Positions 3,384 through 34,062 of a stretch of DNA of 64,000 bases are shown here, piece by piece. How positions within the stretch are numbered: the stretch's first letter is position 1; every line of letters starts with the position of its first letter. This DNA comes from Burkholderiales bacterium. GTDB taxonomy: Bacteria; Pseudomonadota; Gammaproteobacteria; Burkholderiales; SG8-41. Under the pieces are notes generated by a model that saw only the letters and a list, made by a program, of their open reading frames with translations, did not search any database and was not told the DNA's origin. The stretch lies in contig JAUXMZ010000008.1 of assembly GCA_030683105.1 (NCBI GenBank), positions 4,268 to 68,267 of the forward strand. Direction: 5' to 3'. A program made the position numbers and the translations under genes.

Positions 3384-5063
3384 CTATAGATAGTAGAGCA
3401 GCAGGTATCCGAGGAGTAAAACCATAGCCCAGAGCGCCATGCGGCCCGTAGGCCATGAACTTCCCGCGCCCATTGCGCTGGATTGCCGGAGCAGCCCCAT
3501 TCCCCACTGTTCCATCCGCTTGCGCGCCGCGACTTCAAAATCACGGCCTGCCCGGGAAATACCGGCAACAGACTCACGCGCAAGCCCCCTGAACAACACC
3601 CGATACAACCAATCGACATCGAGCGTCAAAGTGAGCGTGCGGCGCAAATAGTTCAGCATCACGAAAAACGCCAGCCCGGAAAACAACAGCAGCTGAAGCT
3701 GGGTGACCACGTGCGCCCCGGTGTACGGCTCGTAGTGCACCGCGTATGGCAGCAACGCATAAAGCGGTCCGGGGAACACGCCCAGCCCGATGCACAACGC
3801 CGCAAACAGGATCATCGCCCACTGCATGTTGCGCGGCGGATCCGGAGGCCGTAATCCCGAGTCCTTCTGGAAGAAAACGAACCACGGAAACTTGATGCCG
3901 GCATGCAGGAACACGCCCGCCGAGGCAGCAGCCAGCATCAGCCATACGTAAAACAGGTGCTCATCGGCCGCCGACTGCGAGATCATGGACTTGCTGATGA
4001 AGCCGGAGGTCAGCGGAAACGACGAGATGGCGAGCGCGCCGACGATGCCGCATATCGCGGTGACCGGCATGCTCTGGAACAGTCCGCCCAGATCGGTGCA
4101 CTTGCGCTTCCCGACCATAAACAGCACCGATCCCGCCGACATCAGCAGCAAGGCCTTGTAAATGATATGAGTGAAGGCATGTGCGGCGGTGCCATTTAGC
4201 GCCATTTCTGTGCCGATGCCTATGCCCGTCACCATGAATCCGACCTGGTTGACGATGCTGTAGGCCAGAATCCGGCGCATGTCGTTCTCGAGCAACGCGT
4301 AGACGATGCCATAGAACACCATGAACAACCCGATATAAATCAGCAGCTCGGTCCCCGGGAACCCGCGCAGCAGCACATAGACCGCGGTCTTGGTGGTGAA
4401 CGCCGACAGGAATACCGTGCCGCTCCACGATGCTTCGGGATAAGCATCGGGCAGCCACGCCGACAACGGCGGAGCTCCGGCATTGATCAGGAATCCTGCC
4501 AGGATCAGCCAGTGTGCAGGCGAATCGAGCGTCATGCGCGTGAATTCGATCGTTCCGAACTCGGCAACATGGCCGGCGATCCCCGCCATCAGAATCACGC
4601 CTCCGAGCAAATGTATCATCAGATAGCGCAGGCTGGCGCGGTAAGCGCTGCCCCCCGCGCTCCAGATCACTAGCGTGGAGCCGATCGCCATCAACTCCCA
4701 GAAAACGAACACTGTAATCAGGTCGCCGGCCAGCGTGACGCCGATCGCCGCGCCGGCATAGAGCAGGGCCGCCGGCAGTTCCAGCGGGCTTTTCTGGTTG
4801 AGGGCAAACAGCGCGCCGCCGAACGCCATCATTGCGAAAATGGTGGCGAACAGCCGCGACAGCCTGTCACCAACGATCAGCGTCAGCTGGTAATCGAGAA
4901 AGGGGACGCTCCAGGCTACGCCGTCAGGCACCTGCCACACCAGATACAGCACCAGCACGGGCACGCCAAGACTGACCGTGGAGCGCGCCATGCCGCGCAA
5001 CGCCAGCAGCAGCAGCGCGCCTGCGATCAGCACCAGCCCGGGATGCATTACGAGGCTAGTCAT
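3384..5063 (-). CDS. MrpD/NuoL-M-N family antiporter-like subunit with a C-terminal extension (Mrp-like locus 1)
   Basis: 559 aa, multi-TM. Family motifs WLPDAYPEA and HAFTHIIYKALLLM. An extra ~65-aa tail (DVDWLYRVLFRGL...) ends in one more TM helix. 8-nt overlap with the 84-aa ORF. Confidence 0.9.
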   Translation of the reverse strand: MTSLVMHPGLVLIAGALLLLALRGMARSTVSLGVPVLVLYLVWQVPDGVAWSVPFLDYQLTLIVGDRLSRLFATIFAMMAFGGALFALNQKSPLELPAALLYAGAAIGVTLAGDLITVFVFWELMAIGSTLVIWSAGGSAYRASLRYLMIHLLGGVILMAGIAGHVAEFGTIEFTRMTLDSPAHWLILAGFLINAGAPPLSAWLPDAYPEASWSGTVFLSAFTTKTAVYVLLRGFPGTELLIYIGLFMVFYGIVYALLENDMRRILAYSIVNQVGFMVTGIGIGTEMALNGTAAHAFTHIIYKALLLMSAGSVLFMVGKRKCTDLGGLFQSMPVTAICGIVGALAISSFPLTSGFISKSMISQSAADEHLFYVWLMLAAASAGVFLHAGIKFPWFVFFQKDSGLRPPDPPRNMQWAMILFAALCIGLGVFPGPLYALLPYAVHYEPYTGAHVVTQLQLLLFSGLAFFVMLNYLRRTLTLTLDVDWLYRVLFRGLARESVAGISRAGRDFEVAARKRMEQWGMGLLRQSSAMGAGSSWPTGRMALWAMVLLLGYLLLYYL

Positions 5064-5310
5064 CGCGTTCCTCGTAATAGGTATCGGGCCGCTTGAGCAC
5101 CAGGCCGATCAGTTTGGCAGTCAAGATCATAGCCGCGCACGCCGCAAAACCGTACCAGGCATTGAAACCGAAAGTGCCGTCTATGCCAAAGTGCGCTTCA
5201 TGCTCGATGAAAAACTCGGCGGCGACGGTCGCAGCGAGCACGATGATAAAAAGCCACCACAGCTTCTTGATCGTCTCGGGGCGTGTGAGCCAGTGCTGCT
5301 GCATGATCAA
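5056..5310 (-). CDS. Small two-TM membrane protein embedded in Mrp-like locus 1
   Basis: 84-aa ORF with two hydrophobic helices and an acidic tail. ATGA overlap with the upstream D-like gene and 8-nt overlap with the downstream one. No family recognised. Confidence 0.6.
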   Translation of the reverse strand: MIMQQHWLTRPETIKKLWWLFIIVLAATVAAEFFIEHEAHFGIDGTFGFNAWYGFAACAAMILTAKLIGLVLKRPDTYYEERDD

Positions 5311-6773
5311 ACTCCCGCCAGCTGGCGCGCCAGCTCCAGCGGGACTTCAGGGAAGAAAAACAGGGCGACGGTGCCCAGCGCGGTCAAGGTAAGCGCCGCC
5401 ACCATGGGCCAGGGGGCTTCACCATGCGCGTGATGGCCATGGCCGTCGGCCGGCGGGGCCACGAAGAAGGCACGATAGATGATAGGCAGAAAATACCCGG
5501 CATTTAGCAGGGTGCTGGCAATGATAACAAACACCGCATTCCATTGTTCGGTCCCCATCGCGCCCTGCAGTATGTACCATTTGCTGATGAACCCGGCAGC
5601 AGGCGGCAGCCCGATCATCGACAGCGCGCCGACGGCAAACGCACCCATCGTCCACGGCATGCGCCGGCCGATGCCGGCAAGCTGGCTGACCTCGGTCTTG
5701 TGCGCGGCGGTGTAAATCGCGCCGGCCGCGAAAAACAGCGTGATTTTGCCCAAAGCGTGGGCCGCAATGTGCAATGCCGCGCCAACTATCGACAATGGGG
5801 TGAGCAACGCCGCCGCCAGCACCACATACGACAGTTGGCTGACTGTCGAATAAGCCAGCCGGCGCTTCAGATTGTCCGAACGCAGGGCGACAATGGAAGC
5901 GGCAATGATGGTAAAACCGGAAATGAACGGCAGCCAGTCGACGCTCCGCAATCCGGAGATTTCTTCGACGCCGAAGACGTAGACCACAATTTTCACCACC
6001 GAAAACACCCCGGCCTTGACCACCGCCACCGCGTGCAGCAGGGCGGAGACCGGTGTCGGCGCCACCATCGCCGCCGGCAGCCAGCGGTGAAACGGCATGA
6101 CCGCCGCTTTGCCGATGCCGAATATGAATAACGCCAGCAATACGCCGAGCATGGCATTGCTAGCCCTGCCCTTGAGTATGCCGCCTACGGCGAATTCCAG
6201 GGTTCCCGCAAGCTGCCAGGTCCAGACGATGCCCACCAGCAAAAACACGGTGGATGTGCCGATCAGCATTCCGAGGTAGATGCGCCCTGATCGCCTGGCA
6301 TCCTCGGTCCCGGCGTGCGTCACCAGCGGGTAAGTGATCAGCGTCAGCGCCTCGTAGAACAAGAACAGCGTCAGCAGATTGCCGGCGAACGCGATGCCGA
6401 CCGCACTGGCCAGCGCGCCGGCGAAACAGACATAGAAGCGCGTCTGATGCTTCTCGTTGTTGGCGCGCATGTAACCGATCGAGTACAGGGAATTGACGAT
6501 CCACAATCCCGACGCAATCAGGCCGAACAGCATGCCGAGCGGTTCTACTTTGAATTTCAGGGCGAGGCCCGGCATCATTTCCAGCAGCGTCACCTCCGGT
6601 CGCTCTCCGGCGAGCACCAGCGGGGTGAGCGACGCCGCCAGCAGGAACAAGATTCCCGCCGTGACCAGCGTGATGGTTTCGCGCACGTTGGGCGCGCGAT
6701 GCGCGGCGGCGATCAGCGCCGCCCCGATCAGGGGGACAGCCAGCGCGAGCAGGATGGTCGCGGCCGGCGTCAT
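5307..6773 (-). CDS. MrpD-like antiporter subunit (locus 1, second copy)
   Basis: Motifs HRWLPAAMVAPTPVSALLHAVAVVKAG and HIAAHALGKITLFF. The ORF-track start at 6854 is rejected in favour of MTPAATILLALAV at 6773, which forms an ATGA overlap with the upstream stop. Confidence 0.9.
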   Translation of the reverse strand: MTPAATILLALAVPLIGAALIAAAHRAPNVRETITLVTAGILFLLAASLTPLVLAGERPEVTLLEMMPGLALKFKVEPLGMLFGLIASGLWIVNSLYSIGYMRANNEKHQTRFYVCFAGALASAVGIAFAGNLLTLFLFYEALTLITYPLVTHAGTEDARRSGRIYLGMLIGTSTVFLLVGIVWTWQLAGTLEFAVGGILKGRASNAMLGVLLALFIFGIGKAAVMPFHRWLPAAMVAPTPVSALLHAVAVVKAGVFSVVKIVVYVFGVEEISGLRSVDWLPFISGFTIIAASIVALRSDNLKRRLAYSTVSQLSYVVLAAALLTPLSIVGAALHIAAHALGKITLFFAAGAIYTAAHKTEVSQLAGIGRRMPWTMGAFAVGALSMIGLPPAAGFISKWYILQGAMGTEQWNAVFVIIASTLLNAGYFLPIIYRAFFVAPPADGHGHHAHGEAPWPMVAALTLTALGTVALFFFPEVPLELARQLAGV

Positions 6774-8251
6774 CGAATGCCCTGCAGCAGCGTTTGCGCA
6801 GCCCGTGCCGCCCCGTCTACCGTGAGCGTGGTATCGAGCCCGAAATAAAAGCACGCCGCGATCATCAGCAACGCCGGAACCAGCATTTCAAGCGGCGCCT
6901 CTTTCAGTTGCGCGGTTTTTGCATCCGGCTCGCGGAAATACGCGGCCTCGACGAAACGCCAGACGTAGACCACCGCCAGCAGCGAACTGAGCATGATCGC
7001 GAGCGCAATCCACCACTGGCCGCTCTCCAGCGCTGCGAGCACTAGATACCACTTGCTGATGAAACCTGCGGTCCCCGGCGCGCCGATCAGGCTTAAGCCC
7101 CCGAGCACGATACCGAAGGAGGTGAATGGCATCACGCGCGCGATGCCGCCGATGTTGTCGAACCGGATGCGTCCCAGGCGCAGGGCGAAGCAGCCCAGCA
7201 ACATGAACAGCGCGCCCTTGGTCAGCGCATGATTGAACAGATGGACGATGCCCCCGGTCAGACCAGTTACGGAATCGAAGCTGATCCCCAGCGTGATGTA
7301 GCCGATCTGTGCCACGCTCGAATAGGCAAACAGCCGTTTCAGGTCGCTCTGGATGATGGCGATGGCGGATGCGATGAACATCGCGGCAAGCGACAGCAGG
7401 AGCAGGATCTGGCCCATTGGCAGCGCATAAAATATCGCGCTTTCACCGTATATCGAATAGTAGAAGCGCAGCAGCACATAGACCGATACCTTGGTGGCGG
7501 TTGCCGCCAAAAACGCGGTGACGGCGGACGGCGCATAGGCATAGGCGTTGGGCAGCCACAGGTGCAGCGGAAACAGCGCAAGCTTGAGGCAGATGCCGAC
7601 GGTGATGAATGCCAGCGCCGCCAGCACCGCCCGCACTTCGGTCACGCCGGCCAGGCGTTGCGCCATATCAGCCATGTTAAGCGTGCCCGTCATCAGGTAC
7701 AGCAGCCCTACGCCGATTATGTAAAAAGTCGCGCCGATGGTGCCCATGATCAGATACTGATACGAGGCCATCAACGCCCGCCGGTCGCGCCCCAGCGCGA
7801 TCAGCGCATAGGACGACAGCGAGGAGATTTCGAGGAAGACGAACAAATTGAAGGCATCGCCGGTGGCGGCGATGCCGAGCAACCCTGCGAGGCACAGTGC
7901 AAACAGGCTGTAGAACAGGTAGTGCTGGTGGGCCGGCAACTCGGCCGCCACGCTGGCGCGGCTGTAAATCACCACCACCGCGGCAATCAGCGATACCAGA
8001 ACCAGCACAAAAGCGTTGACGCGGTCGATGCGGTACTCGATGCCCCACGGCGGCGGCCAGCTGCCGATGGCATAAGAAATCACGCTGCCGTCGGCGACCT
8101 GGGCCAGCAATGAGAGCGAAATAAAGAGTCCGGTCCAGCTTACGATCACCGCCAGCAGCCAGGCGGGAGCGCCGCGCCGCAGCAGCACCATGAGGGGCGC
8201 AGCCATCAGCGGCAGTACTACCTGCAGTATGGGAAAATGCTGCGCGATCAC
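6770..8251 (-). CDS. MrpD-like antiporter subunit (locus 1, first copy)
   Basis: 493 aa. Motifs HLWLPNAYAYAPSAVTAFLAATATK and HLFNHALTKGALFM. 4-nt overlap with the MnhC-like gene. Confidence 0.9.
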   Translation of the reverse strand: MIAQHFPILQVVLPLMAAPLMVLLRRGAPAWLLAVIVSWTGLFISLSLLAQVADGSVISYAIGSWPPPWGIEYRIDRVNAFVLVLVSLIAAVVVIYSRASVAAELPAHQHYLFYSLFALCLAGLLGIAATGDAFNLFVFLEISSLSSYALIALGRDRRALMASYQYLIMGTIGATFYIIGVGLLYLMTGTLNMADMAQRLAGVTEVRAVLAALAFITVGICLKLALFPLHLWLPNAYAYAPSAVTAFLAATATKVSVYVLLRFYYSIYGESAIFYALPMGQILLLLSLAAMFIASAIAIIQSDLKRLFAYSSVAQIGYITLGISFDSVTGLTGGIVHLFNHALTKGALFMLLGCFALRLGRIRFDNIGGIARVMPFTSFGIVLGGLSLIGAPGTAGFISKWYLVLAALESGQWWIALAIMLSSLLAVVYVWRFVEAAYFREPDAKTAQLKEAPLEMLVPALLMIAACFYFGLDTTLTVDGAARAAQTLLQGIR

Positions 8252-8634
8252 GCCGGTTTGCTTGTCGCTGTGTTTGGGAAAACGGGCGTTTTATCCAAAT
8301 CGAGGATCTCGTCCTCCTCGATGCTGCCGTAGGCTTCGCGGATGCGCACGACCAGCGCCAGGCCCAGCGCGAGCGTCGCCACCCCCACCACGATCGCGGT
8401 CAGGATAAGCACGTGCGGCAGCGGATTGGAATAGAGCCCGTACTGCTCGGCGATGATCGGCGCAGTGCCGCCGATCAGCTTGCCGGGAACGATGTACAGC
8501 AGATAGACCGAAGTCTGGAAAATGCCGAGTCCGACCAGCTTTTTGATGAGGTTGCCGCGCGCGATGACAATGTAAAGGCCTGCAATCGCGAGAAAAATCG
8601 TGATCCAGTAGCTGAAATGGCCGGCAATAGTCAT
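8248..8634 (-). CDS. MrpC/MnhC (NuoK-like) subunit, locus 1
   Basis: 128-aa three-TM protein in the position between the B and D subunits. 4-nt overlaps on both sides. Confidence 0.85.
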   Translation of the reverse strand: MTIAGHFSYWITIFLAIAGLYIVIARGNLIKKLVGLGIFQTSVYLLYIVPGKLIGGTAPIIAEQYGLYSNPLPHVLILTAIVVGVATLALGLALVVRIREAYGSIEEDEILDLDKTPVFPNTATSKPA

Positions 8635-9062
8635 GCGTCTTCCACATCCTGGCCGCGGCTGGCGAACATGTAGAAAATTTTCAGCATGACCCCCGACACG
8701 GTGATGAACACGCCGGCCTCCACCCAGAAGATCCCGCGCTCCTCCCCGTGCACCGGATCGCGAGCGAGCACGAAATAGTCGAGGTAATTGCCTCCCAGCA
8801 ACAGGCCCGCCACCCCGACACCGGCATAGAGCAGCACGCCCGCCGCGATCATGGCCTCGGCCAACCGGTCTGGCACCACCGTGCGCGCGTCGGGCAAACC
8901 GAAAATGATGGCGTAAAAAATGATCGCCGCGGCCGCAATCACCCCAGCCTGGAAGCCGCCGCCCGGCCCGAAATCGCCATGGAACAGCACATAAATCGCA
9001 AATAAAATAATAAACGGAATCAACAACTTGAATATTACCCGCAAGACCAGATAGTCTTTCAC
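8631..9062 (-). CDS. MrpB/MnhB-like subunit (C-terminal part, MbhF-like), locus 1
   Basis: 143 aa containing GPGGGFQAGVIAAAA, typical of the MnhB domain. Confidence 0.8.
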   Translation of the reverse strand: MKDYLVLRVIFKLLIPFIILFAIYVLFHGDFGPGGGFQAGVIAAAAIIFYAIIFGLPDARTVVPDRLAEAMIAAGVLLYAGVGVAGLLLGGNYLDYFVLARDPVHGEERGIFWVEAGVFITVSGVMLKIFYMFASRGQDVEDA

Positions 9063-9574
9063 CGCAAGGCTCCTTTCTTGCGTCCGCGCAAACGCCGCAG
9101 CAGTGCGATCACGCCGATCCCGGCCGTGAACACCACTGTGGTTTCGCCGAGCGTGTCATAGCCCCGGTAACTCGCAAGTACCGCGGTGACGATGTTGGGC
9201 ACGCCGGTTTCGCGCAGTCCGTCGCGGATGTAACGCGGGGCCACATGTTGATGGATGGGCGCGGCGGGATCGGAGAATGCCGGCAGGCCCAGCGTGCCGT
9301 AAACCAGCACCGCACCGGTGGCGACGGCGACCAGCAGCGGCAGAAACGGCCTGTGCAGCGGTTTCGTTTCGACGCCTTTGCTCAGATGCAGGGCGCTCAG
9401 GAGCAGCACCGTGGAAATGCCAGCGCCCACTGCCGCCTCCGTCATCGCGACATCGACCGCGTCGAGCGCCACCAGCACCGTCGCCATCAGAAAGCTGTAG
9501 ATGCCGCCCAGGATGACGACCGCGAACAGATTGCGCTGGCCAGCGATCACGATGGCGACCGCGGCCATCATCAC
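9059..9574 (-). CDS. DUF4040 (MbhD-like) fused to the N-terminal MnhB segment (MbhE-like), locus 1
   Basis: 171 aa. N-terminal DAVDVAMTEAAVGAGIS block, then NIVTAVLASYRGYDTLGETTVVF, as in the MrpA C-terminus/MrpB N-terminus. Confidence 0.75.
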   Translation of the reverse strand: MMMAAVAIVIAGQRNLFAVVILGGIYSFLMATVLVALDAVDVAMTEAAVGAGISTVLLLSALHLSKGVETKPLHRPFLPLLVAVATGAVLVYGTLGLPAFSDPAAPIHQHVAPRYIRDGLRETGVPNIVTAVLASYRGYDTLGETTVVFTAGIGVIALLRRLRGRKKGALR

Positions 9575-9591
9575 CAGCAGCGCGCTAATGA

Positions 9592-9921
9592 TTACGGATT
9601 CGATGATTCGCTCCTGTTTGCGGCAAGCACCGGTTTCACGCCGCGTACAAAAGCCGCTTTCGCCAGCGCATGCGTCGCGGTCGGACTGGTGAACAATATG
9701 AGCAGGCCGATGATCAGCAGCTTGACCGCGATCAGCGTGAATCCCGCCTGCATTACCAGTCCGGCCAGGATCAGGCCCGCGCCGAGCGTATCGGTCACGC
9801 TCGCCGCGTGCATCCGCGTGAAAAAATCAGGCATGCGAACCAGGCCCAGTGTGCCGATCACGCAAAAAATGCCGCCACAGACGAGACAGGCCCAACTGGC
9901 GATATCGACGATGGCGGTCAT
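9592..9921 (-). CDS. MrpG/MnhG subunit, locus 1
   Basis: 109 aa containing GTLGLVRMPDFFTRMHAASVTDTLG, the characteristic MnhG motif. Confidence 0.85.
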   Translation of the reverse strand: MTAIVDIASWACLVCGGIFCVIGTLGLVRMPDFFTRMHAASVTDTLGAGLILAGLVMQAGFTLIAVKLLIIGLLILFTSPTATHALAKAAFVRGVKPVLAANRSESSNP

Positions 9922-10205
9922 TTCCCCTGTCCGATTTCCGTGTCTCCCGGTTCGCCCAGGTCGCCGTATTGAAAATACTTGAGCACCGCGATTGTGCCGA
10001 TCACATTGAGCAGGCCGTAAACGATCGCGAGATCGAGAAAGTCCGGGCGGCCGGTCAAAAATCCGAGCACCGCCAGGAGCAGAACCGCAACCGTGCCTAT
10101 GGTGTTTGCCGCCTGCGCACGGTCGAACACCGTAGGTCCGAGAAATGCGCGCACCAGCGCCAGCACCAGCGCCACCAGCAACCCCGCCGCGGCCGCGGTG
10201 AACAT
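9918..10205 (-). CDS. MrpF/MnhF subunit, locus 1
   Basis: Start reassigned to MFTAAAAGLLVAL at 10205 (95 aa, three TM). The ORF-track 189-aa N-terminal extension is Arg-rich and overlaps MnhE. TGATG junction with the MnhE stop. Confidence 0.8.
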   Translation of the reverse strand: MFTAAAAGLLVALVLALVRAFLGPTVFDRAQAANTIGTVAVLLLAVLGFLTGRPDFLDLAIVYGLLNVIGTIAVLKYFQYGDLGEPGDTEIGQGK

Positions 10206-10681
10206 CAGTCCGCCCCCTCGAAGCGGGTCACGCGCCGGTCCATTTCCCCCGACTGCAGGCCGGCGGCGCCCTCGCAGGTCAGCGCGTGCACCAGAATTTC
10301 GCCCTGCTTCACATCCACCGAGATCGTGCCGGGAGTAAGCGTGATCGAATTGGCATAGGTAACGACACCGACCGCTGTCTTCTGTGTAGTCTTGACCCGG
10401 ATCAACGTGGGACTGATCGGCAGGCGCGGATTGACGATGATCCTGGAGACATCCCATGCGCTCTTGACGATTTCCTTGAACAGCCACGGCCAGTAGGCGA
10501 GAACGCGCGCGCCGAGGTGAATCGGATGGCTCTCACGATCCACCACGTCCATGCGGCGCGCCACAAACACCGCGGCCAGCGCCGAACACAATCCGCTGCC
10601 GATCAGAAACGGGGTGAACAATCCCGACAGCAGCAGCCAGAAGGCGAACAGCGTCAGAGTGAGGCTGATGATGTAACTCAC
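10205..10681 (-). CDS. MrpE/MnhE subunit, locus 1
   Basis: 158 aa with two N-terminal TM helices followed by a soluble domain. First gene of the locus. Confidence 0.8.
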   Translation of the reverse strand: MSYIISLTLTLFAFWLLLSGLFTPFLIGSGLCSALAAVFVARRMDVVDRESHPIHLGARVLAYWPWLFKEIVKSAWDVSRIIVNPRLPISPTLIRVKTTQKTAVGVVTYANSITLTPGTISVDVKQGEILVHALTCEGAAGLQSGEMDRRVTRFEGAD

Positions 10682-10950
10682 GCCAGGATTCGGAAGATTG
10701 GATTCGTTTTAATAATGTTCCGGCGATGGTTGCCGGTTCCCTTACCGCGCAATTTTAAGGATAGTGGCGCCGCTTTACAACTCTCTGGCGGCCATGATTG
10801 TACCGTACCGGATGACGCGGGCCGCAAGATTCGTTATTATTTGGCTGGACGCGCTGCCGGTTTTGTTTCTGTCGTGCGACGGCGGTATCGGGCTGTCTGA
10901 AGCGTTCAGTGGCGGCCATCCCCTTCACGGCAACAACACTTTCTGCCGAC

Positions 10951-16370: not shown

Positions 16371-16382
16371 GGAGACCGGAAA

Positions 16383-16709
16383 ATGATTATCGAGATCGCG
16401 GTATCGGCGCTGCTGATGGTAGGCAGTTTCTTCATGCTGGTGGGAGCCATAGGCCTCGCGCGCCTGCCGGATTTCTTCATGCGGCTGCATGCGCCGACCA
16501 AAGCCACCACGCTTGGCGTGGGCAGCATGTTGCTCGCGTCGATGCTCTATTCGCTGCAGGACGGACCGAGCCTGCACGAACTACTGATCGTGCTGTTCCT
16601 GTTCCTTACCGCGCCGGTGAGCGCGCATCTGCTGGCGCAAGCGGCGCTTAAGCTCAAACTCAGGTCACGCGCGCCGATGCCCGGGGATTTTCCGCGGCTC
16701 CCGGACTAG
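16383..16709 (+). CDS. mrpG: MrpG subunit
   Basis: 108 aa containing GAIGLARLPDFFMRLHAPTKATTLG. Confidence 0.85.
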   Translation: MIIEIAVSALLMVGSFFMLVGAIGLARLPDFFMRLHAPTKATTLGVGSMLLASMLYSLQDGPSLHELLIVLFLFLTAPVSAHLLAQAALKLKLRSRAPMPGDFPRLPD

Positions 16710-19444: not shown

Positions 19445-19450
19445 ATCCGG

Positions 19451-20044: not shown

Positions 20045-20206
20045 CATTTCTCCTCCACACAACCATGTCAGACCGTAAATTGCTCTCCGGCATACCAGCT
20101 TGGGGACTGCTTATGCCGGCCCTCAAGTCCTTCGTCACCAGCGAACCGAAGGGGACGCTAGCCGCCTTGGCCATCTTACCGCATCGAGCCGCCGCACTTC
20201 GGGCAC

Positions 20207-20758
20207 TCAAGAGGAGTTCGAGCCTTGACCAGTATCCCTCCGGGTTCGCCAGCGCCGCCAGGTATGCCAACGCCAAATCAGGTCGATCAACAGGTAGGTC
20301 AGGAAACCAGCGAAACAAGCCATCACAAACAGACCGACCAGCAACGGCTTCCCCAAGGCAGCGATACGCTGCACTATCGTCTTTTCGGAAACAGCGCTGG
20401 CGGAAGTCGCCGGATCATCCGACGGCAATGAAGTTTCGCCGGTAATCCAGCTTCCCAACTGGAAAGCGGCGTAATAGAGCGGTCCGAAAGTTACCGGATT
20501 CGAAATCAGCGTACTCGCGGCAGCAGCGGGTAGATTCGCCCGCAGGACAATAGCGGCTGCGGCGGTCAGGGGAATTTGTGCCAGCGGAATCAGCAGTCCG
20601 AAAAACACTCCGATTGCAACGCCCAAGGCGACACCGCGCCGAGACCAGCGCCACAGTTTTGGATGTTCCATCCAAACTGACAACCACCGCAGCCACCGGC
20701 TGGTCAAGAGAGCCTCTCGACTCGGGATCAGGCTGCGCAACCGCTCCGGCCAGCTCAC
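20207..20758 (-). CDS. DUF2062-family membrane protein
   Basis: 183 aa. Block RGVALGVAIGVFFGLLIPLAQIPLTAAAAIVLRANLPAA matches my memory of DUF2062. GTG start forms a GTGA overlap with the diguanylate cyclase stop. Confidence 0.65.
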   Translation of the reverse strand: MSWPERLRSLIPSREALLTSRWLRWLSVWMEHPKLWRWSRRGVALGVAIGVFFGLLIPLAQIPLTAAAAIVLRANLPAAAASTLISNPVTFGPLYYAAFQLGSWITGETSLPSDDPATSASAVSEKTIVQRIAALGKPLLVGLFVMACFAGFLTYLLIDLIWRWHTWRRWRTRRDTGQGSNSS

Positions 20759-21627
20759 GATTCCGCCCCCGAAAATGTGCGCTGCTGAACGCGATTACGG
20801 CCGCCGTTCTTCGCTTCGTACATCAGGGCATCGGCTTGCGCCAGAGCGCTGTCGAAATCGTGTGGCGCAAAATCATAGCTGGCAACGCCGATACTGAATG
20901 TCACGGGCCAGCACTGTTCGCGCATCGCGGCAAGCAGCCTTTGCCTGAGCTTTTCGGCGTAGGACATGGCGGATGACGCATTCATGTCCGGCAACAGCAG
21001 GGCGAACTCGTCGCCGCCCAGTCGTCCGGGTACGTCGCTCTCGCGCACGTGCGACCGTATCACCTGGGCGACCGTCACCAGCAATTGGTCGCCGGCGTCA
21101 TGTCCCAGTTCATCGTTGATCTCCTTGAACTTGTCGATGTCAATGAACACCGCTGTAACCGGCACGGCCTGTCGCCGTGCCTGAGAAAAGGCGCGCCTGC
21201 CGCGCTCATGGAATTCTCGGCGGTTGGGCAATTGCGTCAGGGAGTCCTCGCTCGCCAGCTGCGTCACGCGTTGCAATACGCGCCGCATTTCACCCAGCAG
21301 CCAGGCGCCGCCAAGAAAGATCGCCAGCCGCATGCCGCTATTGAACAGCAACGGAAAGGGATCGGCTTGCTCGGCCGCAAGTATGCGGTCAGCAATAAAC
21401 CACACCACGGCGGCCAGCAGCGCGAGACCATAGCCGGCACGCGCGCCGAGAAACCAGGCGACGAGCAGTACAGGCAGAATGAACAGTACATGGAATTCGT
21501 AGGCCAGGCCGGTCAGCGTGTGCAGGTACCCGATGCCCAACGCGAGTGCTGCGGAACCCGCAAGAATGCCCGTGCGCGCCGACACGCCGGGTTGCCATTG
21601 CCATAACATTACTTCTTTAACCTTCAT
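20755..21627 (-). CDS. Membrane-anchored diguanylate cyclase (GGDEF domain)
   Basis: 290 aa. About five N-terminal TM helices, then a GGDEF domain with GRLGGDEFALLL. ATGA overlap with the last MrpD-like gene of locus 3. Confidence 0.9.
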   Translation of the reverse strand: MKVKEVMLWQWQPGVSARTGILAGSAALALGIGYLHTLTGLAYEFHVLFILPVLLVAWFLGARAGYGLALLAAVVWFIADRILAAEQADPFPLLFNSGMRLAIFLGGAWLLGEMRRVLQRVTQLASEDSLTQLPNRREFHERGRRAFSQARRQAVPVTAVFIDIDKFKEINDELGHDAGDQLLVTVAQVIRSHVRESDVPGRLGGDEFALLLPDMNASSAMSYAEKLRQRLLAAMREQCWPVTFSIGVASYDFAPHDFDSALAQADALMYEAKNGGRNRVQQRTFSGAES

Positions 21628-23135
21628 GGCATCGCTCCGACATACTCGCGCCCGGCGATGAGTTGCGCCCAGGCAAGCGGGCTGACTTCGGTGTCGGCGA
21701 AGATGCCGGCCGCCAGTGTCGCCGCAGCGGTCACCAGCGGCGGCAGCAGCAGCAGCCAGGCGGTTTCACGCCAGCCGTGGGCCGGTATGTGCTCGCCGGA
21801 CCAGGCCACCGGCGCTTGGTGAAACCAGGCGCGCCAAAGGATGGGCAGAAAATAGACGGCATTGAGCAGGCTGGAAGTCCACAGCACCCAGATCGCCCAC
21901 TCCATGCCGGCAGTCTGCGCGCCGTCGGAAAGCCAGGCCTTGCTGACGGCGCCGGCGGTGAGCGGCACCCCCATCATGCTCAGCGCGGCGATCGAGAAGG
22001 CCACGGTGGTGAGCGGCATGCGTCGCCCCGCGCCATCCATTTCGCTCACCTTGTGGATGCCCAGGGTCTCGGCGTAGTTCCCAGCGCAAAAGAACAGCGT
22101 GATCTTCATGATGCCCTGATGCACCAGGTGCACCAACCCTCCAACAGTGCCGATGGGGCCGAACAGGGCCACACCGAGCACGATGTAGGACACCTGGCTG
22201 ACAGTGGAATAGGCGAGTCGCCTCTTGAGGTCATCCTGGAACAGCGCGCGCAGGCTGCCCCAGATAATGGTGACGGCGGCGACCACGGCGAGCGGCGCCA
22301 GCAGTTCGAGCGACTGGGCGAACTCGACGCCATAGACCTCGTAGACGATGCGGGCGATGCCGAAGGCGCCGGCCTTGACCACGGCGACCGCGTGCAACAG
22401 GGCGGACACCGGCGCCGGCGCCACCATGGCCTGGGGCAGCCAGCCGTGCAGCGGCACCAGCGCCGCCTTGACGCCGACGCCGGCGATCAGCAGCAAAAAG
22501 ATTAACTGGAGCTGTCCCGCATGCGCCTGGCCGAGGGACGCGACAAAGCCGCCGTGGGCGAAATCCGCCTGACCGGCCAGGCTGTGCAGCCAGACGATGC
22601 CGGTCAGCAGCAAGGCCCCGCCGCCTAGCGTGTAGGCCAGGTAGATCGTGCCGCCCTTCATCGCCTGATTGGTGCCGCGATGCACCACCAGCGGGAAGGT
22701 GGACAGCGTCAGCAACTCATAGAACACGAAGAAGGTGAACAGGTTGCCGGCCATGGCAATGCCCATGGTCGCGGTGACGCACAGGCTGAAAAAGCCGAAG
22801 AAACGGCTGCGGCGCGGCGCGCCTTCCAGGTAGCCGATCGCATAGAGCGTCGTCAACAGCCAGAGGATGGCCGACAGGGTGATGAACAGCAGCCCCAGCG
22901 CATCTGCTTTGAAGACGAGATCGAGGCCGGGCAGGACCGCATAGCGGACGCCGTAGTCCTCGCCGGCATGCACGCCGGCGAGCAGGATGCCGACGAGCAC
23001 GAGCTTCGCCACGGCGCCGAGCAGGTTGAGCGTCGTGCGCGTACCGATCCAGGTCTCCGGCAGGATGAAGATGACCAGGCCGGGCAGGAGCGACGAGGCC
23101 AGCACCGCAAGCGGCAGGGCTTCGTTGATCGTCAC
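21624..23135 (-). CDS. MrpD-like antiporter subunit (locus 3, second copy)
   Basis: Motif HGWLPQAMVAPAPVSALLHAVAVVKAG. Start reassigned to GTG at 23135 (VTINEALPLAVL; GTGA overlap). The 724-aa ORF-track extension overlaps the upstream gene. Confidence 0.85.
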   Translation of the reverse strand: MTINEALPLAVLASSLLPGLVIFILPETWIGTRTTLNLLGAVAKLVLVGILLAGVHAGEDYGVRYAVLPGLDLVFKADALGLLFITLSAILWLLTTLYAIGYLEGAPRRSRFFGFFSLCVTATMGIAMAGNLFTFFVFYELLTLSTFPLVVHRGTNQAMKGGTIYLAYTLGGGALLLTGIVWLHSLAGQADFAHGGFVASLGQAHAGQLQLIFLLLIAGVGVKAALVPLHGWLPQAMVAPAPVSALLHAVAVVKAGAFGIARIVYEVYGVEFAQSLELLAPLAVVAAVTIIWGSLRALFQDDLKRRLAYSTVSQVSYIVLGVALFGPIGTVGGLVHLVHQGIMKITLFFCAGNYAETLGIHKVSEMDGAGRRMPLTTVAFSIAALSMMGVPLTAGAVSKAWLSDGAQTAGMEWAIWVLWTSSLLNAVYFLPILWRAWFHQAPVAWSGEHIPAHGWRETAWLLLLPPLVTAAATLAAGIFADTEVSPLAWAQLIAGREYVGAMP

Positions 23136-24568
23136 GAGGCGCCTCCCATGGCCGGCACGCCCAGCAGTTGCATCAACTCGACACCGCGCAGACCGAGCAG
23201 CACGCTGGCGGCGGCAAGCAGCAAGGCCATCCATTCCAGCATGCGCGGTACCGGCCGTACATCGCCTACCGGCGCAAGCAGGAAGGCCTGGCGCAGCACG
23301 CGGAACACATACACGGCCGCCAGCAGGCCGCCCGCAAGCGCCGCGACCGCGATGATCCAGTGTCCCTGCGCCAGCGCCGCCTCGATCAACTGCCACTTGG
23401 CCAGAAAGCCTGCCGAGGGCGGCAGCCCCATGAGCGTGATGCCGGCCAGACCAAAGGCGAACAGCGTCAGAGGCAGCTGCTGCGCCGCACCGGCGAGGCC
23501 TTCGACCGTATCCTGGCCGGTGGCCTCGATGAGCACGCCCGCCGCGGCGAACATCGCGGCCTTGGCCAGTCCATGCGCGTACGCCTGCATGATGCCGGCC
23601 TGCAAGGCCCCCTCGGTAGGCAACAGCGGAAAGATCAGGAACAGGTAGCCCAGTTGCGCTACGGTCGAGTACGCCACCAGCATCTTGATACGCCGGGCGC
23701 AGATCGCCTGGTACGAACCCCAGAATATCGCCGCCGCGCCCAGCAGCGCCGGCAGCCAGGCGATGATCCCGGCAAGCGGGGCAAAGGGCCCAAGCCACAG
23801 ACGCAGGATCAGGTAGAACGACGCCTTGACCACGAGGGCGGAAAGCAGCGCCGAAACCGGCGCCGGCGCCCCGCCGTGGGCGGGCGGCAGCCAGAAGTGG
23901 AAGGGAAACAGCGCGGTCTTGAGCATCAGGCCCGCCAGCATCAAACCGCCGGCCAGCCTGACGACGTCCGGTGCTTCGGCTGTCACCAGAGGCAGCAATG
24001 TCGGGATGGACACCGTGCCGTAGGCGCCGTAGATCAGCGCCACGCCCAGCAGATAGGCGCCGGAGCCCAGCAGCGTGGCAAACAGGTAACGCAACGCGGC
24101 GGTAATCTGCTTTGCTCCGCCGCCGGCGGCGACCAGGCCCACGGCTGCGAGCCCGACCAGTTCGAGCGTGACGTAGAGGTTGAAGAGGTCGGCCGAGAGA
24201 AACAGGGCATTGAGGCCGGCAATCAGGAAGCCGGCCAGTGGCCAGAAATAGCGGGCTTCCGCCGCATATGACGCAAAATAGGTCCGCGCGTAGATCGCCA
24301 GCGGCAAGACGACGACTTGCGTCAGCAGCAACATCGCGACGGAAAGACCATCGGCTGCGAGGTCGATCCCCAGCGGCGCCCCCCAGCCGCCGATGGCATG
24401 CGCACCGGCGCCGGAATCGTTCAAACCGGCGGCCAGTTGCAAGGCAAGCAGAAGTTGCACGGCGAGGCCTGCAATTGCCGGTCGTGCGCCGCGCCCAGGA
24501 CCGAGCAGGAAAGCGAAGCAGGCCCAGGCGAGCGGCAGCACGATCAGCCAGACCATGGGATCAATCAT
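23132..24568 (-). CDS. MrpD-like antiporter subunit (locus 3, first copy)
   Basis: 478 aa. Motif HFWLPPAHGGAPAPVSALLSALVVKAS. Confidence 0.9.
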   Translation of the reverse strand: MIDPMVWLIVLPLAWACFAFLLGPGRGARPAIAGLAVQLLLALQLAAGLNDSGAGAHAIGGWGAPLGIDLAADGLSVAMLLLTQVVVLPLAIYARTYFASYAAEARYFWPLAGFLIAGLNALFLSADLFNLYVTLELVGLAAVGLVAAGGGAKQITAALRYLFATLLGSGAYLLGVALIYGAYGTVSIPTLLPLVTAEAPDVVRLAGGLMLAGLMLKTALFPFHFWLPPAHGGAPAPVSALLSALVVKASFYLILRLWLGPFAPLAGIIAWLPALLGAAAIFWGSYQAICARRIKMLVAYSTVAQLGYLFLIFPLLPTEGALQAGIMQAYAHGLAKAAMFAAAGVLIEATGQDTVEGLAGAAQQLPLTLFAFGLAGITLMGLPPSAGFLAKWQLIEAALAQGHWIIAVAALAGGLLAAVYVFRVLRQAFLLAPVGDVRPVPRMLEWMALLLAAASVLLGLRGVELMQLLGVPAMGGAS

Positions 24569-24863
24569 CGTCCGCCACGGGCAACTCCATTTTCCCCGTC
24601 AGCCCATGAAAACGGCGTACCAGGCCCAGCGCGAGCGCGGTGGCCGCGACGGCGACGACGATGCCGGTCAGCACCATCGCCTGCGGCACCGGATCGGCTG
24701 CGTCGCTGCGCTGGGCCAGGCCGACGAGGACAAGAAACGCCCCGCTTCCCATCAGGTTGAAGGCGAGTATGCGGCGCAGCAGGTGGTCGATAAGCAGCAC
24801 GCCGGCGACGCCCATGGCGAACAGGGCGGCGCCGGCAAACGCGAAGATCAGACCGCTGGTCAT
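24561..24863 (-). CDS. MrpC/MnhC (NuoK-like) subunit, locus 3
   Basis: 100 aa, three TM, in the position between the B and D subunits. Confidence 0.8.
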   Translation of the reverse strand: MTSGLIFAFAGAALFAMGVAGVLLIDHLLRRILAFNLMGSGAFLVLVGLAQRSDAADPVPQAMVLTGIVVAVAATALALGLVRRFHGLTGKMELPVADDD

Positions 24864-25516
24864 GATTCGCCTCCGTCGTCATCCGACAGGAACAGGAACA
24901 AACCGGCAAGAATGAGCCCCAGCGAGATGGTGAGCCCGGACTCGATCAGGAGGATCAGCGCGCCGGCATGGGCCGGCGGATAGCGCAGCAAACCGCCTTC
25001 GATCAGCAACACCGCCGCGACGGCGAGGAAGACCAGAAATCCGCCTGACAAACCCCAGCGCAGGCGGACCCTGGGCTGCCTCCACCCGGGCATCAATCCG
25101 GTCAGGTGCAGCAACACCGCCGATGCGGCCAGTACGGCGCCCGCCTGAAAGGCCCCGCCGGGCCGGAATGCGCCGGCCCAGAGCAGGTAGATTGCAACGA
25201 TCGCCATCAGCGGTGCGGCGATCCGCGCCAGCATTTGCAGCAAGGGATCCATCGGTCCGACGGCGCCGCTTTCCCGTTGATTGCCGACAGCCAGAATACC
25301 CAGCAGGGCGAGCAGCAGTACGGCGATTTCGAGCAGGGTGTCGTAGGCGCGGAAATTCAGCAGCACCGCCGTGACGGGGTGTTCAACGCCGCTGGCCGCG
25401 AGATTTGCCGCCACCGACGGGCGCAGGTCGATCGCGGCGGGCCCCAGATCGCCCATGGCTGCGAGCAGCGCGACGATGAAAGCCAGGGCGGCGCCCACGA
25501 CGGCGATGCGCTTCAT
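24860..25516 (-). CDS. MrpB/MnhB subunit (full length), locus 3
   Basis: Start reassigned to MKRIAVVGAALAF at 25516. Contains VTAVLLNFRAYDTLLEIAVLL and RPGGAFQAGAVLA. Confidence 0.8.
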   Translation of the reverse strand: MKRIAVVGAALAFIVALLAAMGDLGPAAIDLRPSVAANLAASGVEHPVTAVLLNFRAYDTLLEIAVLLLALLGILAVGNQRESGAVGPMDPLLQMLARIAAPLMAIVAIYLLWAGAFRPGGAFQAGAVLAASAVLLHLTGLMPGWRQPRVRLRWGLSGGFLVFLAVAAVLLIEGGLLRYPPAHAGALILLIESGLTISLGLILAGLFLFLSDDDGGES

Positions 25517-25779
25517 TTCTTCGCCTCCGTTCCCGCACCGCGTCGTCGCAGCGCGCCGTAGGCATCGAGCAGCAGGGCGCCGGTCAACCCGGCGCCGATG
25601 GCGGCCTCGGCCAGGCCGAGGTCCGGCGCCGAGAGCCGCGCCCACGCCAGGGCCATCAGCAGGCCGAAAGCGATGAACAGCACAATGGCCCGGTCGAGCC
25701 GGGGTGTCGTGAGCGCGCCCCAGCAACTCCACAGCAGGCTTGCGGCGAGCAACAGGTCGAAAGCGAGGCCTACATTCAT
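25513..25779 (-). CDS. DUF4040 (MbhD-like) subunit, locus 3
   Basis: 88 aa containing DLGLAEAAIGAGLTGALLL. 4-nt overlaps on both sides. Confidence 0.7.
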   Translation of the reverse strand: MNVGLAFDLLLAASLLWSCWGALTTPRLDRAIVLFIAFGLLMALAWARLSAPDLGLAEAAIGAGLTGALLLDAYGALRRRGAGTEAKK

Positions 25780-26078
25780 GTATCTTCCCGCCGCCAGGGT
25801 CGGATGCCCAGCGCGTCCGCGCGGCGGGCGATGGCATAGCTGATGCCGGCGCTGGCCGCCAGCGCCAGCGGCCAGATCAACAACAGTTTCAAGGCTACGG
25901 CCAAACTTTCCGCCTGCAGGGCCAATCCCAGCACTATGCAGCCGAGCCCCAGGTTGTCGGCTTTTGCCAGGGCATGCAGCCGGCTGTAGACATCAGGAAA
26001 GCGCAGCAGCCCGACGGTGCCGGAAAAATAGAAAAAAGCGCCCATGCAAAGCAGCACGATGCTGGCGATCTCAATCAT
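25776..26078 (-). CDS. MrpG/MnhG subunit, locus 3
   Basis: Start reassigned to MIEIASIVLLCMG at 26078. Contains GTVGLLRFPDVYSRLHALAKADNLG. Confidence 0.8.
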   Translation of the reverse strand: MIEIASIVLLCMGAFFYFSGTVGLLRFPDVYSRLHALAKADNLGLGCIVLGLALQAESLAVALKLLLIWPLALAASAGISYAIARRADALGIRPWRREDT

Positions 26079-26346
26079 GTGGCTTCTTCTCCCCGGCATG
26101 CCAGGCACGCCCGGCAAAGGCGACGCCGGTGATTGCGGCGAGCAACGCGAGAACCAGCGCGACATCGACGAGTTCATGTCCGGCGCCGGCATGGGCCAGC
26201 AGCACGAGGATGCCCACGCCCGTGCTGCCGAACAGCAGCGCCACCAGCATGCGGTCGGCGGCGGTTGGCCCGCGCGCGGCGGCCAGCAGCGCGACGATCA
26301 GATTGACCAGCAGAAACAGGGCGAGCGGAAATTCGATACCGGTCAT
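26071..26346 (-). CDS. MrpF/MnhF subunit, locus 3
   Basis: 91 aa, three TM, containing AARGPTAADRMLVALLFG. Confidence 0.8.
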   Translation of the reverse strand: MTGIEFPLALFLLVNLIVALLAAARGPTAADRMLVALLFGSTGVGILVLLAHAGAGHELVDVALVLALLAAITGVAFAGRAWHAGEKKPHD

Positions 26347-26813
26347 GGCTGCTCTCTGAATATCACCTCAATCCGGGCTTCCAGCGCCCGAACCGCCACC
26401 GCAATGGGCATGCGCGCATCGAGGACGTGCAGGCGCAGCCGATCCCCTTCGAGCCGCACGCCGAGAGAGCCGGGCATCAGCCCGAGCGCGTTGACCATGA
26501 GGATGCGCGCTGCGCCGGACCGGAGGGACAACTGCATCTCCAGCATATCCGGCTGCAGCGCCTGGCGTCCGCGCAATGCGATCAGCGCCACTTGCGCCCC
26601 GCCGCGCACCGAATTCCAGATGAAATACCCCATAAAAGCGAACAGGCCGGCTACGCTGATCCGCCCCGATGCCGGCAGCAACAGGCGGACGCTTGCCCAT
26701 AGCGCAACGGCGACCGCGATCGCGCCGAGCCCCCAACTTCCCGCGCGACCCTCGGACAAGATCCACCACAGCAGCGCGAACAGGATGCCGCGCCTCAGAA
26801 GCGCAGCGGTCAT
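26343..26813 (-). CDS. MrpE/MnhE subunit, locus 3
   Basis: 156 aa. N-terminal TM pair then a soluble domain. First gene of the locus. Confidence 0.75.
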   Translation of the reverse strand: MTAALLRRGILFALLWWILSEGRAGSWGLGAIAVAVALWASVRLLLPASGRISVAGLFAFMGYFIWNSVRGGAQVALIALRGRQALQPDMLEMQLSLRSGAARILMVNALGLMPGSLGVRLEGDRLRLHVLDARMPIAVAVRALEARIEVIFREQP

Positions 26814-32591: not shown

Positions 32592-32652
32592 GAGATTTAC
32601 GCTCAGTCGATGAGAAGTTTGAAAGGCATGCAGCCACACCCGGTACGAAGGT

Positions 32653-34045: not shown

Positions 34046-34062
34046 GATTTGCCTCCAATATT

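Follow-up and report, generated by a model that had tools for sequence, protein, structure and literature searches.

The DNA analyzed here is a window of 64,000 nucleotides from a Burkholderiales bacterium (GenBank assembly GCA_030683105.1, contig JAUXMZ010000008.1, positions 4,268 to 68,267 of the forward strand) that carries three gene clusters of the Mrp type, designated loci 1, 2, and 3. Judging from their domain content and gene order, the three loci are probably stand-alone Mrp operons of the CPA3 (cation/proton antiporter 3) family, with locus 2 belonging to Group 2 and loci 1 and 3 to Group 3 of these systems. In loci 1 and 3, the C-terminal domain of MrpA would be supplied by MbhD/MbhE-like protein(s), and the N-terminal pump domain of MrpA would be replaced by separate antiporter-like proteins with 14 to 16 transmembrane (TM) helices. 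Locus 3 would hold the full canonical domain set, namely E, F, G, B, the MrpA C-terminal domain (MrpA-C), C, a MrpD-type protein (D1), and a second pump (D2). To that set, locus 1 would add a third antiporter-like protein (D3), with the TM15, lateral helix, and TM16 clamp typical of MrpA and NuoL, and a subunit of 84 residues.

Gene layout and the divided MrpA

Gene identities were established by listing the open reading frames, refining their starts, and scanning the products with Pfam and NCBIfam. All 24 genes of the three loci lay at, or a few codons away from, the positions that a sequence-only reading of this DNA had given them. For G, B, C, and D2 of locus 3, the longest open reading frames had a wrong start or frame, and the coordinates chosen are those that match the profiles. 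Locus 1 comprises 10 genes on the minus strand (3384-10681) in the order E-F-G-[MbhD+MbhE]-MnhB-C-D-D-(84 aa)-D, as assigned by Pfam and NCBIfam, and the same two databases identify locus 2 on the plus strand (10951-16709) as a fused mrpA(B)-C-D-E-F-G of the Group 2 type. Locus 3 comprises eight genes on the minus strand (21624-26813) with the Pfam order E-F-G-MbhD-[MbhE+MnhB]-C-D-D. These are the gene orders that the sequence-only reading had proposed, and Pfam and NCBIfam recognized every listed subunit gene; its comparison of E-F-G-MbhD/E-B-C-D in loci 1 and 3 with the Mbh order is likewise upheld by Pfam. The profile searches found all subunit families in loci 1 and 3, and each of the two contains a complete Mrp domain set with all small-subunit families and at least two Proton_antipo_M proteins.

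The assignments are strengthened by family-level scores. Four proteins of locus 1 passed the NCBIfam equivalog cut-offs for antiporter subunits, and its MbhD+MbhE fusion reached 183 bits with PRK12504 against a cut-off of 141. The locus 2 MrpA(B) is a fused A-B protein that scored 1334 bits with PRK12648 (cut-off 1104), and locus 2 also matched PRK12666 with 629 bits, above the cut-off. Moreover, database proteins identical to those of the window carry the NCBI names 'Na(+)/H(+) antiporter subunit D' and 'subunit B'.

The genes within each locus are tightly packed. Consecutive genes overlap by 1, 4, 4, 4, 4, 4, 4, and 8 nt in locus 1, by 1, 4, 4, and 7 nt in locus 2, and by 4, 8, 4, 4, 4, 8, and 4 nt in locus 3, and these overlaps of 1-8 nt point to co-translated complexes. 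The near-universal overlaps described earlier thus hold, the exceptions being a single 17-nt gap in locus 1 and a single 12-nt gap in locus 2. Loci 1 and 2 diverge from a shared spacer, previously put at about 230-270 bp and measured here at 227-269 bp, that contains one promoter-like, sigma-70-like site per strand (plus, 10812-10840; minus, 10780-10752). A riboswitch or other known RNA in this spacer or upstream of locus 3 was considered and rejected, since no Rfam match reached the gathering score across the whole window and the two spacers gave only chance-level matches at E<=1. No tRNA was detected in the window.

A full-length mrpA gene is present only in locus 2, and no protein of loci 1 and 3 joins Proton_antipo_M to MbhD/MbhE. 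However, when the MbhD/E and MnhB proteins of loci 1 and 3 were concatenated, they aligned end to end with the last 330 residues of the locus 2 MrpA(B). The locus 1 fusion is colinear with residues ~610-775 of the locus 2 MrpA, the equivalent of TM17-21. In locus 3, MbhD corresponds to the initial portion of the MrpA C-terminal domain, and the MbhE+MnhB fusion, colinear with MrpA(B), to the end of MrpA-C plus MrpB. The DTxGE motif and the PGGxFxAG motif of MrpB are kept in the alignments of both loci; the locus 1 fusion carries YDTLGE and also TEAAVGAG, a motif of the type found in MBH (membrane-bound hydrogenase); the locus 3 MbhE+MnhB protein carries YDTLLE and PGGAFQAG. In A. flavithermus, the MrpA carboxylates E706, D792, and E796 are reported to be essential for activity, and D29 and D35 of MrpF are conserved (PMC7419157). 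The equivalents of D792 and E796 are the acidic residues of DTxGE, so that two of these three carboxylates are present in loci 1 and 3; the equivalent of E706 is present as well, at the MBH-style position (T/A)EAAxGAG. The first of the two conserved MrpF aspartates is also kept in both loci.

The sequence-only reading, which saw no MrpA in loci 1 and 3, is therefore right about the full-length gene but wrong about the domains, all of which are present as separate genes. By this alignment-based evidence, MrpA is encoded in pieces. Canonical Mrp has two antiporter-like modules, the N-terminal domain of MrpA and MrpD. The two modules of locus 3 are thus the canonical number, and only locus 1, with three, differs; of the different antiporter-subunit stoichiometries of 3 and 2 proposed earlier, the extra module of locus 1 stands, whereas the number in locus 3 is an ordinary one. 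The coordinates and principal matches of the individual features are given in Table 1.

Table 1. Features of loci 1 to 3 and of the genes directly following locus 3, with positions in the window and supporting matches
Feature	Position	Strand	Length	Match or remark
Locus 1 MrpE-like	10205..10681	-	158 aa	Pfam MNHE, E=5e-31
Locus 1 MrpF-like	9918..10205	-	95 aa	Pfam MrpF_PhaF, 7.9e-17
Locus 1 MrpG-like	9592..9921	-	109 aa	Pfam PhaG_MnhG_YufB, 7e-27; TIGR01300 above cut-off
Locus 1 MbhD+MbhE fusion	9059..9574	-	171 aa	Pfam MbhD, 9.5e-15; MbhE, 1.8e-12
Locus 1 MrpB/MbhF-like	8631..9062	-	143 aa	Pfam MnhB, 5.9e-29; PRK12508, 174 bits vs 120
Locus 1 MrpC/NuoK-like	8248..8634	-	128 aa	Oxidored_q2, 1.1e-19; NF005624, 125 bits vs 95
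Locus 1 D1	6770..8251	-	493 aa	Proton_antipo_M, 2.6e-60; MrpD/MbhH/MbsH-type
Locus 1 D2	5307..6773	-	488 aa	Pfam, 1.4e-55; leans to MrpA-N/NuoL type
Locus 1 predicted two-TM protein	5056..5310	-	84 aa	No known family; two hydrophobic segments
Locus 1 D3	3384..5063	-	559 aa	NCBIfam PRK12668, 695 bits vs cut-off 564
Divergent spacer, loci 1/2	10682..10950		227-269 bp	Length depends on the mrpA start
Locus 2 MrpA(B)	10951-13731, or start 10909	+	926 aa	Proton_antipo_N/M + MbhD + MbhE + MnhB
Locus 2 C	13731-14081	+		Pfam
Locus 2 D	14078-15622	+		Pfam
Locus 2 E	15619-16107	+		Pfam
Locus 2 F	16101-16370	+		Pfam
Locus 2 G	16383-16709	+		Pfam
Locus 3 MrpE-like	26343..26813	-	156 aa	Pfam MNHE, 3.6e-23
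Locus 3 MrpF-like	26071..26346	-	91 aa	MrpF_PhaF, 5.8e-6; 27.1 bits vs cut-off 23.3
Locus 3 MrpG-like	25776..26078	-	100 aa	Pfam PhaG_MnhG_YufB, 1e-24
Locus 3 MbhD-like	25513..25779	-	88 aa	Pfam MbhD, 1.2e-16; AEAAIGAG motif
Locus 3 MbhE+MnhB fusion	24860..25516	-	218 aa	MnhB, 1.8e-12; MbhE, 9.6e-4 (below cut-off)
Locus 3 MrpC/NuoK-like	24561..24863	-	100 aa	Pfam Oxidored_q2, 1.8e-17
Locus 3 D1	23132..24568	-	478 aa	Pfam, 3.5e-54; MrpD-type; best PDB match MrpD 7qru_D, 175 bits
Locus 3 D2	21624..23135	-	503 aa	Pfam, 5.3e-53; counterpart of locus 1 D2, 45% identical
GGDEF diguanylate cyclase, membrane-anchored	20755-21627	-		Pfam; 4-nt overlap with last gene of locus 3
DUF2062 gene	20207-20758	-		Pfam; 4-nt overlap with GGDEF gene

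Antiporter-like subunits and the proposed complex

The D subunits were classed by NCBIfam profile scores, phmmer rankings against the PDB, motif comparison, and a structural search. The D1 of locus 1 resembles MbsH (230 bits), MbhH (210 bits), and MrpD (193 bits) most closely among PDB sequences. The D2 of locus 1 scored 145 bits against the locus 2 MrpA and 59 bits against MrpD, and that of locus 3 scored 154 and 91 bits, respectively. Both D2 proteins have 14 TM helices with neither a C-terminal extension nor a lateral helix, and they share with MrpA a longer, His-containing TM8 motif, PxPVSALLHAxxxVKAG, which reads PTPVSALLHAVAVVKAG in the D2 of locus 1. The PDB rankings are mixed, with NdhF, MbhH, NuoL, and MrpA leading for locus 1 and MbsH, MbhH, NdhF, MrpD, and NuoL for locus 3, and D2 is for this reason called MrpA-N-leaning, not proven; as judged by sequence, its class leans toward MrpA-N/NuoL and is ambiguous. 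Like the MrpA and MrpD of locus 2, the D1 and D2 proteins of loci 1 and 3 all have a Glu in TM5 and a Lys in both TM7 and TM12, and the D1 of locus 1 carries the TM8 Lys in addition.

The D3 of locus 1 is of a different kind. Its best PDB sequence match is MbsH', and its 110-residue C-terminal extension aligns with the region of MrpA that comprises TM15, the lateral helix (HL), and TM16. An AlphaFold2 model built from a 57-sequence alignment (pLDDT 72.9, pTM 0.75) places helices at residues 449-473, 484-529, and 539-558, the 46-residue middle one being charged and non-hydrophobic (mean Kyte-Doolittle value -0.40; nine K/R and five D/E). A Foldseek search with this model returned MrpA first (7qru_A, TMq 0.75; 6z16_A), followed by NdhF, NuoL, and ND5; all of these leading matches bear lateral helices and outrank MrpD and NuoM. 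Residue 194 of D3 is Asn in place of the canonical TM7 Lys, within the motif NAGAPPLSAWLP. This Asn is invariant in the 57-sequence alignment. The 120 homologues listed gave 110 matches to the motif, and 108 of these have the Asn. The same position is Lys in MrpA, MrpD, MbhH, and MbsH' and Glu in MbsH.

The seven antiporter-like proteins of the window are 27-45% identical in pairwise comparison, and the closest pairs fall between loci, with D2 of locus 1 and D2 of locus 3 at 45% and the two D1 proteins at 35%, which indicates that two subunit types of ancient divergence are common to loci 1 and 3. The possibility, raised in the sequence-only reading, that the D-like genes are recent duplicates of the locus 2 mrpD was examined and rejected on the basis of these identities.

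The 84-residue protein encoded between D2 and D3 of locus 1 has no relative in Pfam, NCBIfam, or the PDB, where the best match is no better than E=0.28. When its family is clustered at 50% identity, 788 clusters match at E<=1e-3 and 234 at E<=1e-10, and the annotation is 'hypothetical protein' throughout. A homologue lies between D2 and D3 in all four other contexts examined (L080, L081, L082, and L084). Sequence comparison thus identifies it as a conserved, unannotated member of the locus 1 operon type. A divergent second MrpC, as in the cyanobacterial mrpCDCD arrangement, was considered as its identity and rejected, since hhalign against an MrpC alignment gave a probability of 0.5%.

By analogy with characterized relatives, we infer how these proteins may form a complex, as well as its ion specificity, direction, and stoichiometry. 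From homology with the solved Mrp and MBH structures, the E, F, G, B, MrpA-C, and C proteins would form the cation path, and D1 would dock on MrpC and the MrpA-C domain, as do MrpD and MbhH. D2 would stand in for the N-terminal domain of MrpA. In locus 1, D3 would cap the chain, its amphipathic helix and TM16 reaching back over D2, and the two-TM protein of 84 residues, encoded between D2 and D3, would plausibly sit at the interface of the two. The result would be a three-pump chain that resembles the complex I arm NuoN-M-L but lacks a redox module. The proton motive force would drive H+ inward through the antiporter-like subunits along a chain of TM5 Glu, TM7 Lys, TM8 Lys/His, and TM12 Lys, and H+ entry would be coupled electrostatically to the export of Na+ (or K+) through the MrpA-C/C/B/E/F/G module. 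The third module of locus 1 would raise the ratio of H+ per cation.

Several observations weigh against this assignment. The locus 3 D2 has MbsH and MbhH as its best PDB matches, so the MrpA/NuoL type of D2 is not clean, and locus 3 has no lateral-helix subunit at all. The absence of the TM7 Lys implies that D3 may not be a conventional proton pump. In addition, at the position of the second conserved MrpF Asp, D35 of A. flavithermus, locus 1 has Asn and locus 3 has Leu. The characterized Group 3 systems, from one archaeon and one cyanobacterium, are distant from loci 1 and 3, ion specificity cannot be read from sequence, and the Mrp of Thermomicrobium roseum is a Ca2+/H+ antiporter (PMC5703873).

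Some of these points would also fit an unlikely variant, in which one or both of loci 1 and 3 encode real Mrp-type complexes that operate in the reverse direction, using the influx of Na+ to expel H+ and so to control acid or pH, as has been proposed for the stand-alone Mrp of Pyrococcus furiosus, or that transport another cation such as K+ or Ca2+. The D3 without Lys might then be a cation path and not a proton path. Consistent with this, the substitution is invariant in the D3 family and the second MrpF Asp is not conserved, a P. furiosus strain deleted for its Group 3 Mrp is more sensitive to acidification and not to salt (PMC8415708), and S. meliloti Pha1 is reported to be K+-related, beside the Ca2+/H+ activity of the T. 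roseum system (PMC5703873). Moreover, the presence of three Mrp systems and two CPA-type exchangers in one neighborhood argues for a division of labor over redundancy. However, nothing in the sequence sets the direction or the ion, and the carboxylates of the MrpA-C Na+ site are conserved as in Na+/H+ Mrp and MBH. This variant refines the assignment of loci 1 and 3 as Group 3 Mrp antiporters and does not contradict it.

Autonomy, spread, and genomic context

That loci 1 and 3 stand alone, as the sequence-only reading had suggested, is supported by their surroundings. No genes of the NuoB, NuoD, NuoH, NuoI, MbhJ-N, or hydrogenase families were found among the scanned neighbors in the window, and no redox-module genes lie beside the homologous operons in seven other annotated contexts, as judged by Pfam or the deposited annotation; the earlier observation that no NuoB/NuoD/hydrogenase-type partner is nearby thus extends beyond this genome. 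Locus 1 likewise contains no NuoA, NuoH, or NuoJ genes as such. The neighbors change between genomes while the operons stay intact, a pattern expected of an autonomous unit.

These data also bear on whether one or both of loci 1 and 3 could instead be the membrane arm of a redox-driven complex, similar to MBH, the sulfane sulfur reductase MBS, Mbx, Ehr, or a 'green complex I', whose soluble or quinone module is encoded elsewhere. Their gene order is identical to mbhA-H, and D1 and D3 of locus 1 find their best sequence matches in MbsH and MbsH' of sulfane sulfur reductase. However, in addition to the lack of redox genes described above and the intactness of the operons amid varying neighbors, the redox genes are co-operonic in the known MBH, MBS, and formate hydrogenlyase (FHL) systems, and the position at which the redox module docks in MBH would be taken by D2 and D3 in locus 1. 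We consider a redox-driven complex quite improbable.

The two architectures are widespread. A genome scan with the locus 3 D2 returned at least 539 relatives, and the best 79 loci (L001-L079) are 72-85% identical in D2. Of the 63 loci whose upstream sequence is long enough, 58 keep the eight-gene order of locus 3 colinear, with a median identity of 53-77% per subunit. The 79 best loci belong to Betaproteobacteria (Thiobacillus, Dechloromonas, Accumulibacter, Rhodoferax, Methylotenera, Gallionella, and Nitrosospira) and Gammaproteobacteria (Stutzerimonas, Pseudomonas, Thiorhodococcus, and Thiohalocapsa), and they also include metagenome-assembled genomes (MAGs) of Desulfobulbaceae and Desulfoarculaceae and a Geomobilimonas isolate. 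Isolates with the locus 3 order belong to Stutzerimonas, Pseudomonas, Azonexus, Thiorhodococcus, and Geomobilimonas. Such high identities across classes and phyla, isolates included, point to horizontal spread. A plasmid search yielded no close copy (more than 67% identical) of the locus 3 D2. Plasmids do carry related Group 3 operons with three D genes; one of these, of the order E-F-G-(MbhD..B fusion)-NuoK-D-D-D, lies between insertion sequence (IS) elements on a mobilizable 39-kb plasmid of Rhizobium rosettiformans (NZ_CP032409.1).

For locus 1, a database search with D3 saturated at more than 8000 relatives (E<=1e-20). The 10-gene order, down to a gene for 83-84 residues, was found unchanged in four other contexts, each with unrelated neighbors, namely Accumulibacter ACC007, a MAG of the Hyphomicrobiaceae, and two further long contigs. 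The two architectures are thus common, as the sequence-only reading had allowed they might be, but only distant members have been characterized. The Group 3 layouts of loci 1 and 3 are real, but they belong to a frequent kind that has a name and receives routine annotation.

The number of pump modules is not fixed among operons of the locus 3 type. In 10 of the 71 related operons (about one in seven), a third antiporter-like gene for 500-556 residues follows D2 and overlaps its stop codon (L069, at 11500-13002; L017, L033, L060, L061, L062, L072, L075, L078, and L079), indicating that module number varies within this operon family. These third D proteins are only 27-37% identical to every D-like protein of the window and so represent yet another clade. 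By eye, the one in L078 seems to end in an amphipathic helix and then a TM segment.

Rearranged forms were also seen. A P-type ATPase gene separates the best D2 match from the rest of the operon in L010, L017, L019, L064, and L070, and L017 has two D2-like copies, 77% and 80% identical; this suggests that the displaced D2 genes are rearranged or orphan. In other genomes, a strict adjacency test for a D2-like gene standing alone immediately upstream of a Group 2 mrpA found none. Group 2 Mrp operons adjoin operons of the locus 3 type in L022, L047, and L069. In a Gallionella MAG (L039), an operon of the locus 1 type, a P-type ATPase gene, and an operon of the locus 3 type are adjacent, implying that the close clustering of several Mrp systems is not unique to the window.

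The neighbors of the three loci in the window are largely concerned with ion homeostasis (16875-20062, minus strand; 27582-30311, minus strand; and 32139-40515). They encode a tripartite ATP-independent periplasmic (TRAP) transporter, a universal stress protein (Usp), a CPA2/Kef-like exchanger with TrkA_N, TerD, DUF2062, and GGDEF proteins, and further a P-type cation ATPase, a ferric-reductase-like protein, a second Usp, NfeD, GCS2, and a second Na_H_Exchanger. The TerD, CPA2/Kef-like (with TrkA_N), and tandem-Usp genes form one unit, with gaps or overlaps of 6 and 4 nt, and there is a 4-nt overlap between the GCS2 gene and that of the second Na_H_Exchanger. In many of the 79 loci, the locus 3 type operons are again accompanied, in shuffled orders, by homologues of the ATPase, Usp, Kef, GGDEF, and Group 2 Mrp genes. 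Judged by their overlaps, the GGDEF and DUF2062 genes are probable accessory genes of the locus 3 transcript. A GGDEF homologue directly follows D2 in 8 of 71 related loci, which suggests that the locus 3 antiporter operon is linked to cyclic di-GMP (c-di-GMP) signaling.

Upstream of locus 3, at 26857-27389 on the minus strand, lie remnants of a DUF502 gene, namely two overlapping open reading frames of 88 and 89 residues that represent the two gene ends. About 200 nt of the middle are missing relative to intact homologues (e.g., in L061), and the gene is thus probably a pseudogene. The same split was seen in an independent Logan contig (L086), and 12 of 59 related loci have an intact DUF502 gene immediately upstream of that for MrpE. 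This disrupted neighbor, together with the presence of three systems of the same superfamily within 23 kb, might suggest that one or both of loci 1 and 3 are decaying or redundant paralogues without function. We regard this as very improbable, because all 18 genes of the two loci are intact with coupled starts and keep their key residues, their orthologues are 50-85% identical across many genera in colinear operons, and the paralogues within the window are ancient (27-45% identity) and not recent copies.

Comparison with known Mrp systems

Group 3 Mrp systems are described as having an irregular gene order, no mrpA, and one or several mrpD genes (PMC5703873, PMC8415708). Loci 1 and 3 agree with this definition and lack the full-length mrpA and the A(B)CDEFG order that characterize Groups 1 and 2, whereas locus 2 agrees with Group 2. 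Comparing loci 1 and 3 with canonical Group 1/2 Mrp (6Z16, 7D3U, 7QRU, and locus 2), all domain types, the colinear MrpA-C/MrpB region, the Glu and Lys residues of the proton path, and the carboxylates of DTxGE are shared. However, canonical Mrp has the order A-B-C-D-E-F-G, its MrpA is a single protein of 800-950 residues, the Glu of its MbhD helix lies in QxxVE and not at the MBH-type TEAAxGAG, and it keeps the second MrpF Asp, which is absent from loci 1 and 3.

The closest described layout is the stand-alone mrpEFGBB'CD cluster of P. furiosus (PF1147-53), which has been deleted and studied and whose coupling ion is Na+; MbhD and MbhE are fused in its MrpB, and its MrpB' resembles MbhF (PMC8415708). 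The order E-F-G-MrpB-MrpB'-C-D shows exactly the fusion pattern of locus 1, and, as in loci 1 and 3, there is neither an mrpA gene nor an adjacent redox module (PMC8415708). However, the P. furiosus system has one antiporter-like subunit, whereas locus 3 has two and locus 1 has three plus the 84-residue protein. In addition, its host is an archaeon and not a bacterium, and the archaeal comparators are distant (104-230 bits for MbhH and MbsH).

Among bacteria, mrpCD1D2EFGAB of Aphanothece halophytica confers Na+/H+ antiport in E. coli, and Synechocystis has an mrpCDCDEFGBB cluster (PMC5703873). Compared by gene order, these cyanobacterial clusters are likewise of Group 3, with two mrpD-like genes and short MrpA/B-like pieces, but they begin with C-D-D and end with A/B. 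The Group 3 Mrp of 'Ca. Nitrospira alkalitolerans' has two extra NuoL/NuoM-like genes after mrpD that were read as antiporter subunits (PMC7784846); the extra mrpA/mrpD-like genes downstream of mrpD resemble locus 1, and this system is known from annotation alone. The nine-gene MnhBCDEFG cluster of Thermodesulfovibrio sp. N1 contains no A subunit (PMC5165239). In the searchable literature, we came across neither structural nor biochemical work on bacterial Group 3 Mrp systems that have two or three pump modules.

With regard to complex I, the three pumps of locus 1, with a predicted lateral-helix subunit at the terminus, would mimic NuoN-NuoM-NuoL. However, complex I and the MBH/MBS enzymes have a quinone or hydrogenase module (NuoB/D/H/I, MbhJ-N) that is absent near loci 1 and 3 and from the homologous loci, and the predicted lateral helix of D3 spans ~46 residues. 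The NuoL lateral helix is considerably longer.

The finding itself is an ordinary one, adding one more genome with a Group 3 Mrp beside a canonical Mrp, and it shows how the 'missing MrpA' of such operons can be understood as a split gene and not as a lost function. Modestly new are the unannotated, widely conserved family of 84-residue subunits and the Lys-to-Asn substitution in D3. It is possible, and we put this forward tentatively, that the locus 1 type is an autonomous 10-subunit Mrp resembling a complex I arm, with three modules, a lateral-helix terminus devoid of the TM7 Lys, the 84-residue subunit, and an altered H+/cation stoichiometry or divided ion paths, and that the co-located systems cover different regimes of pH, salt, and proton motive force. 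Since no characterized bacterial Group 3 Mrp with two or three pumps was found, these operons are convenient for relating module number to H+/Na+ stoichiometry. If the proposed organization is correct, the locus 1 type would provide a natural, redox-free test bed for the relation between module number and stoichiometry in the complex I superfamily.

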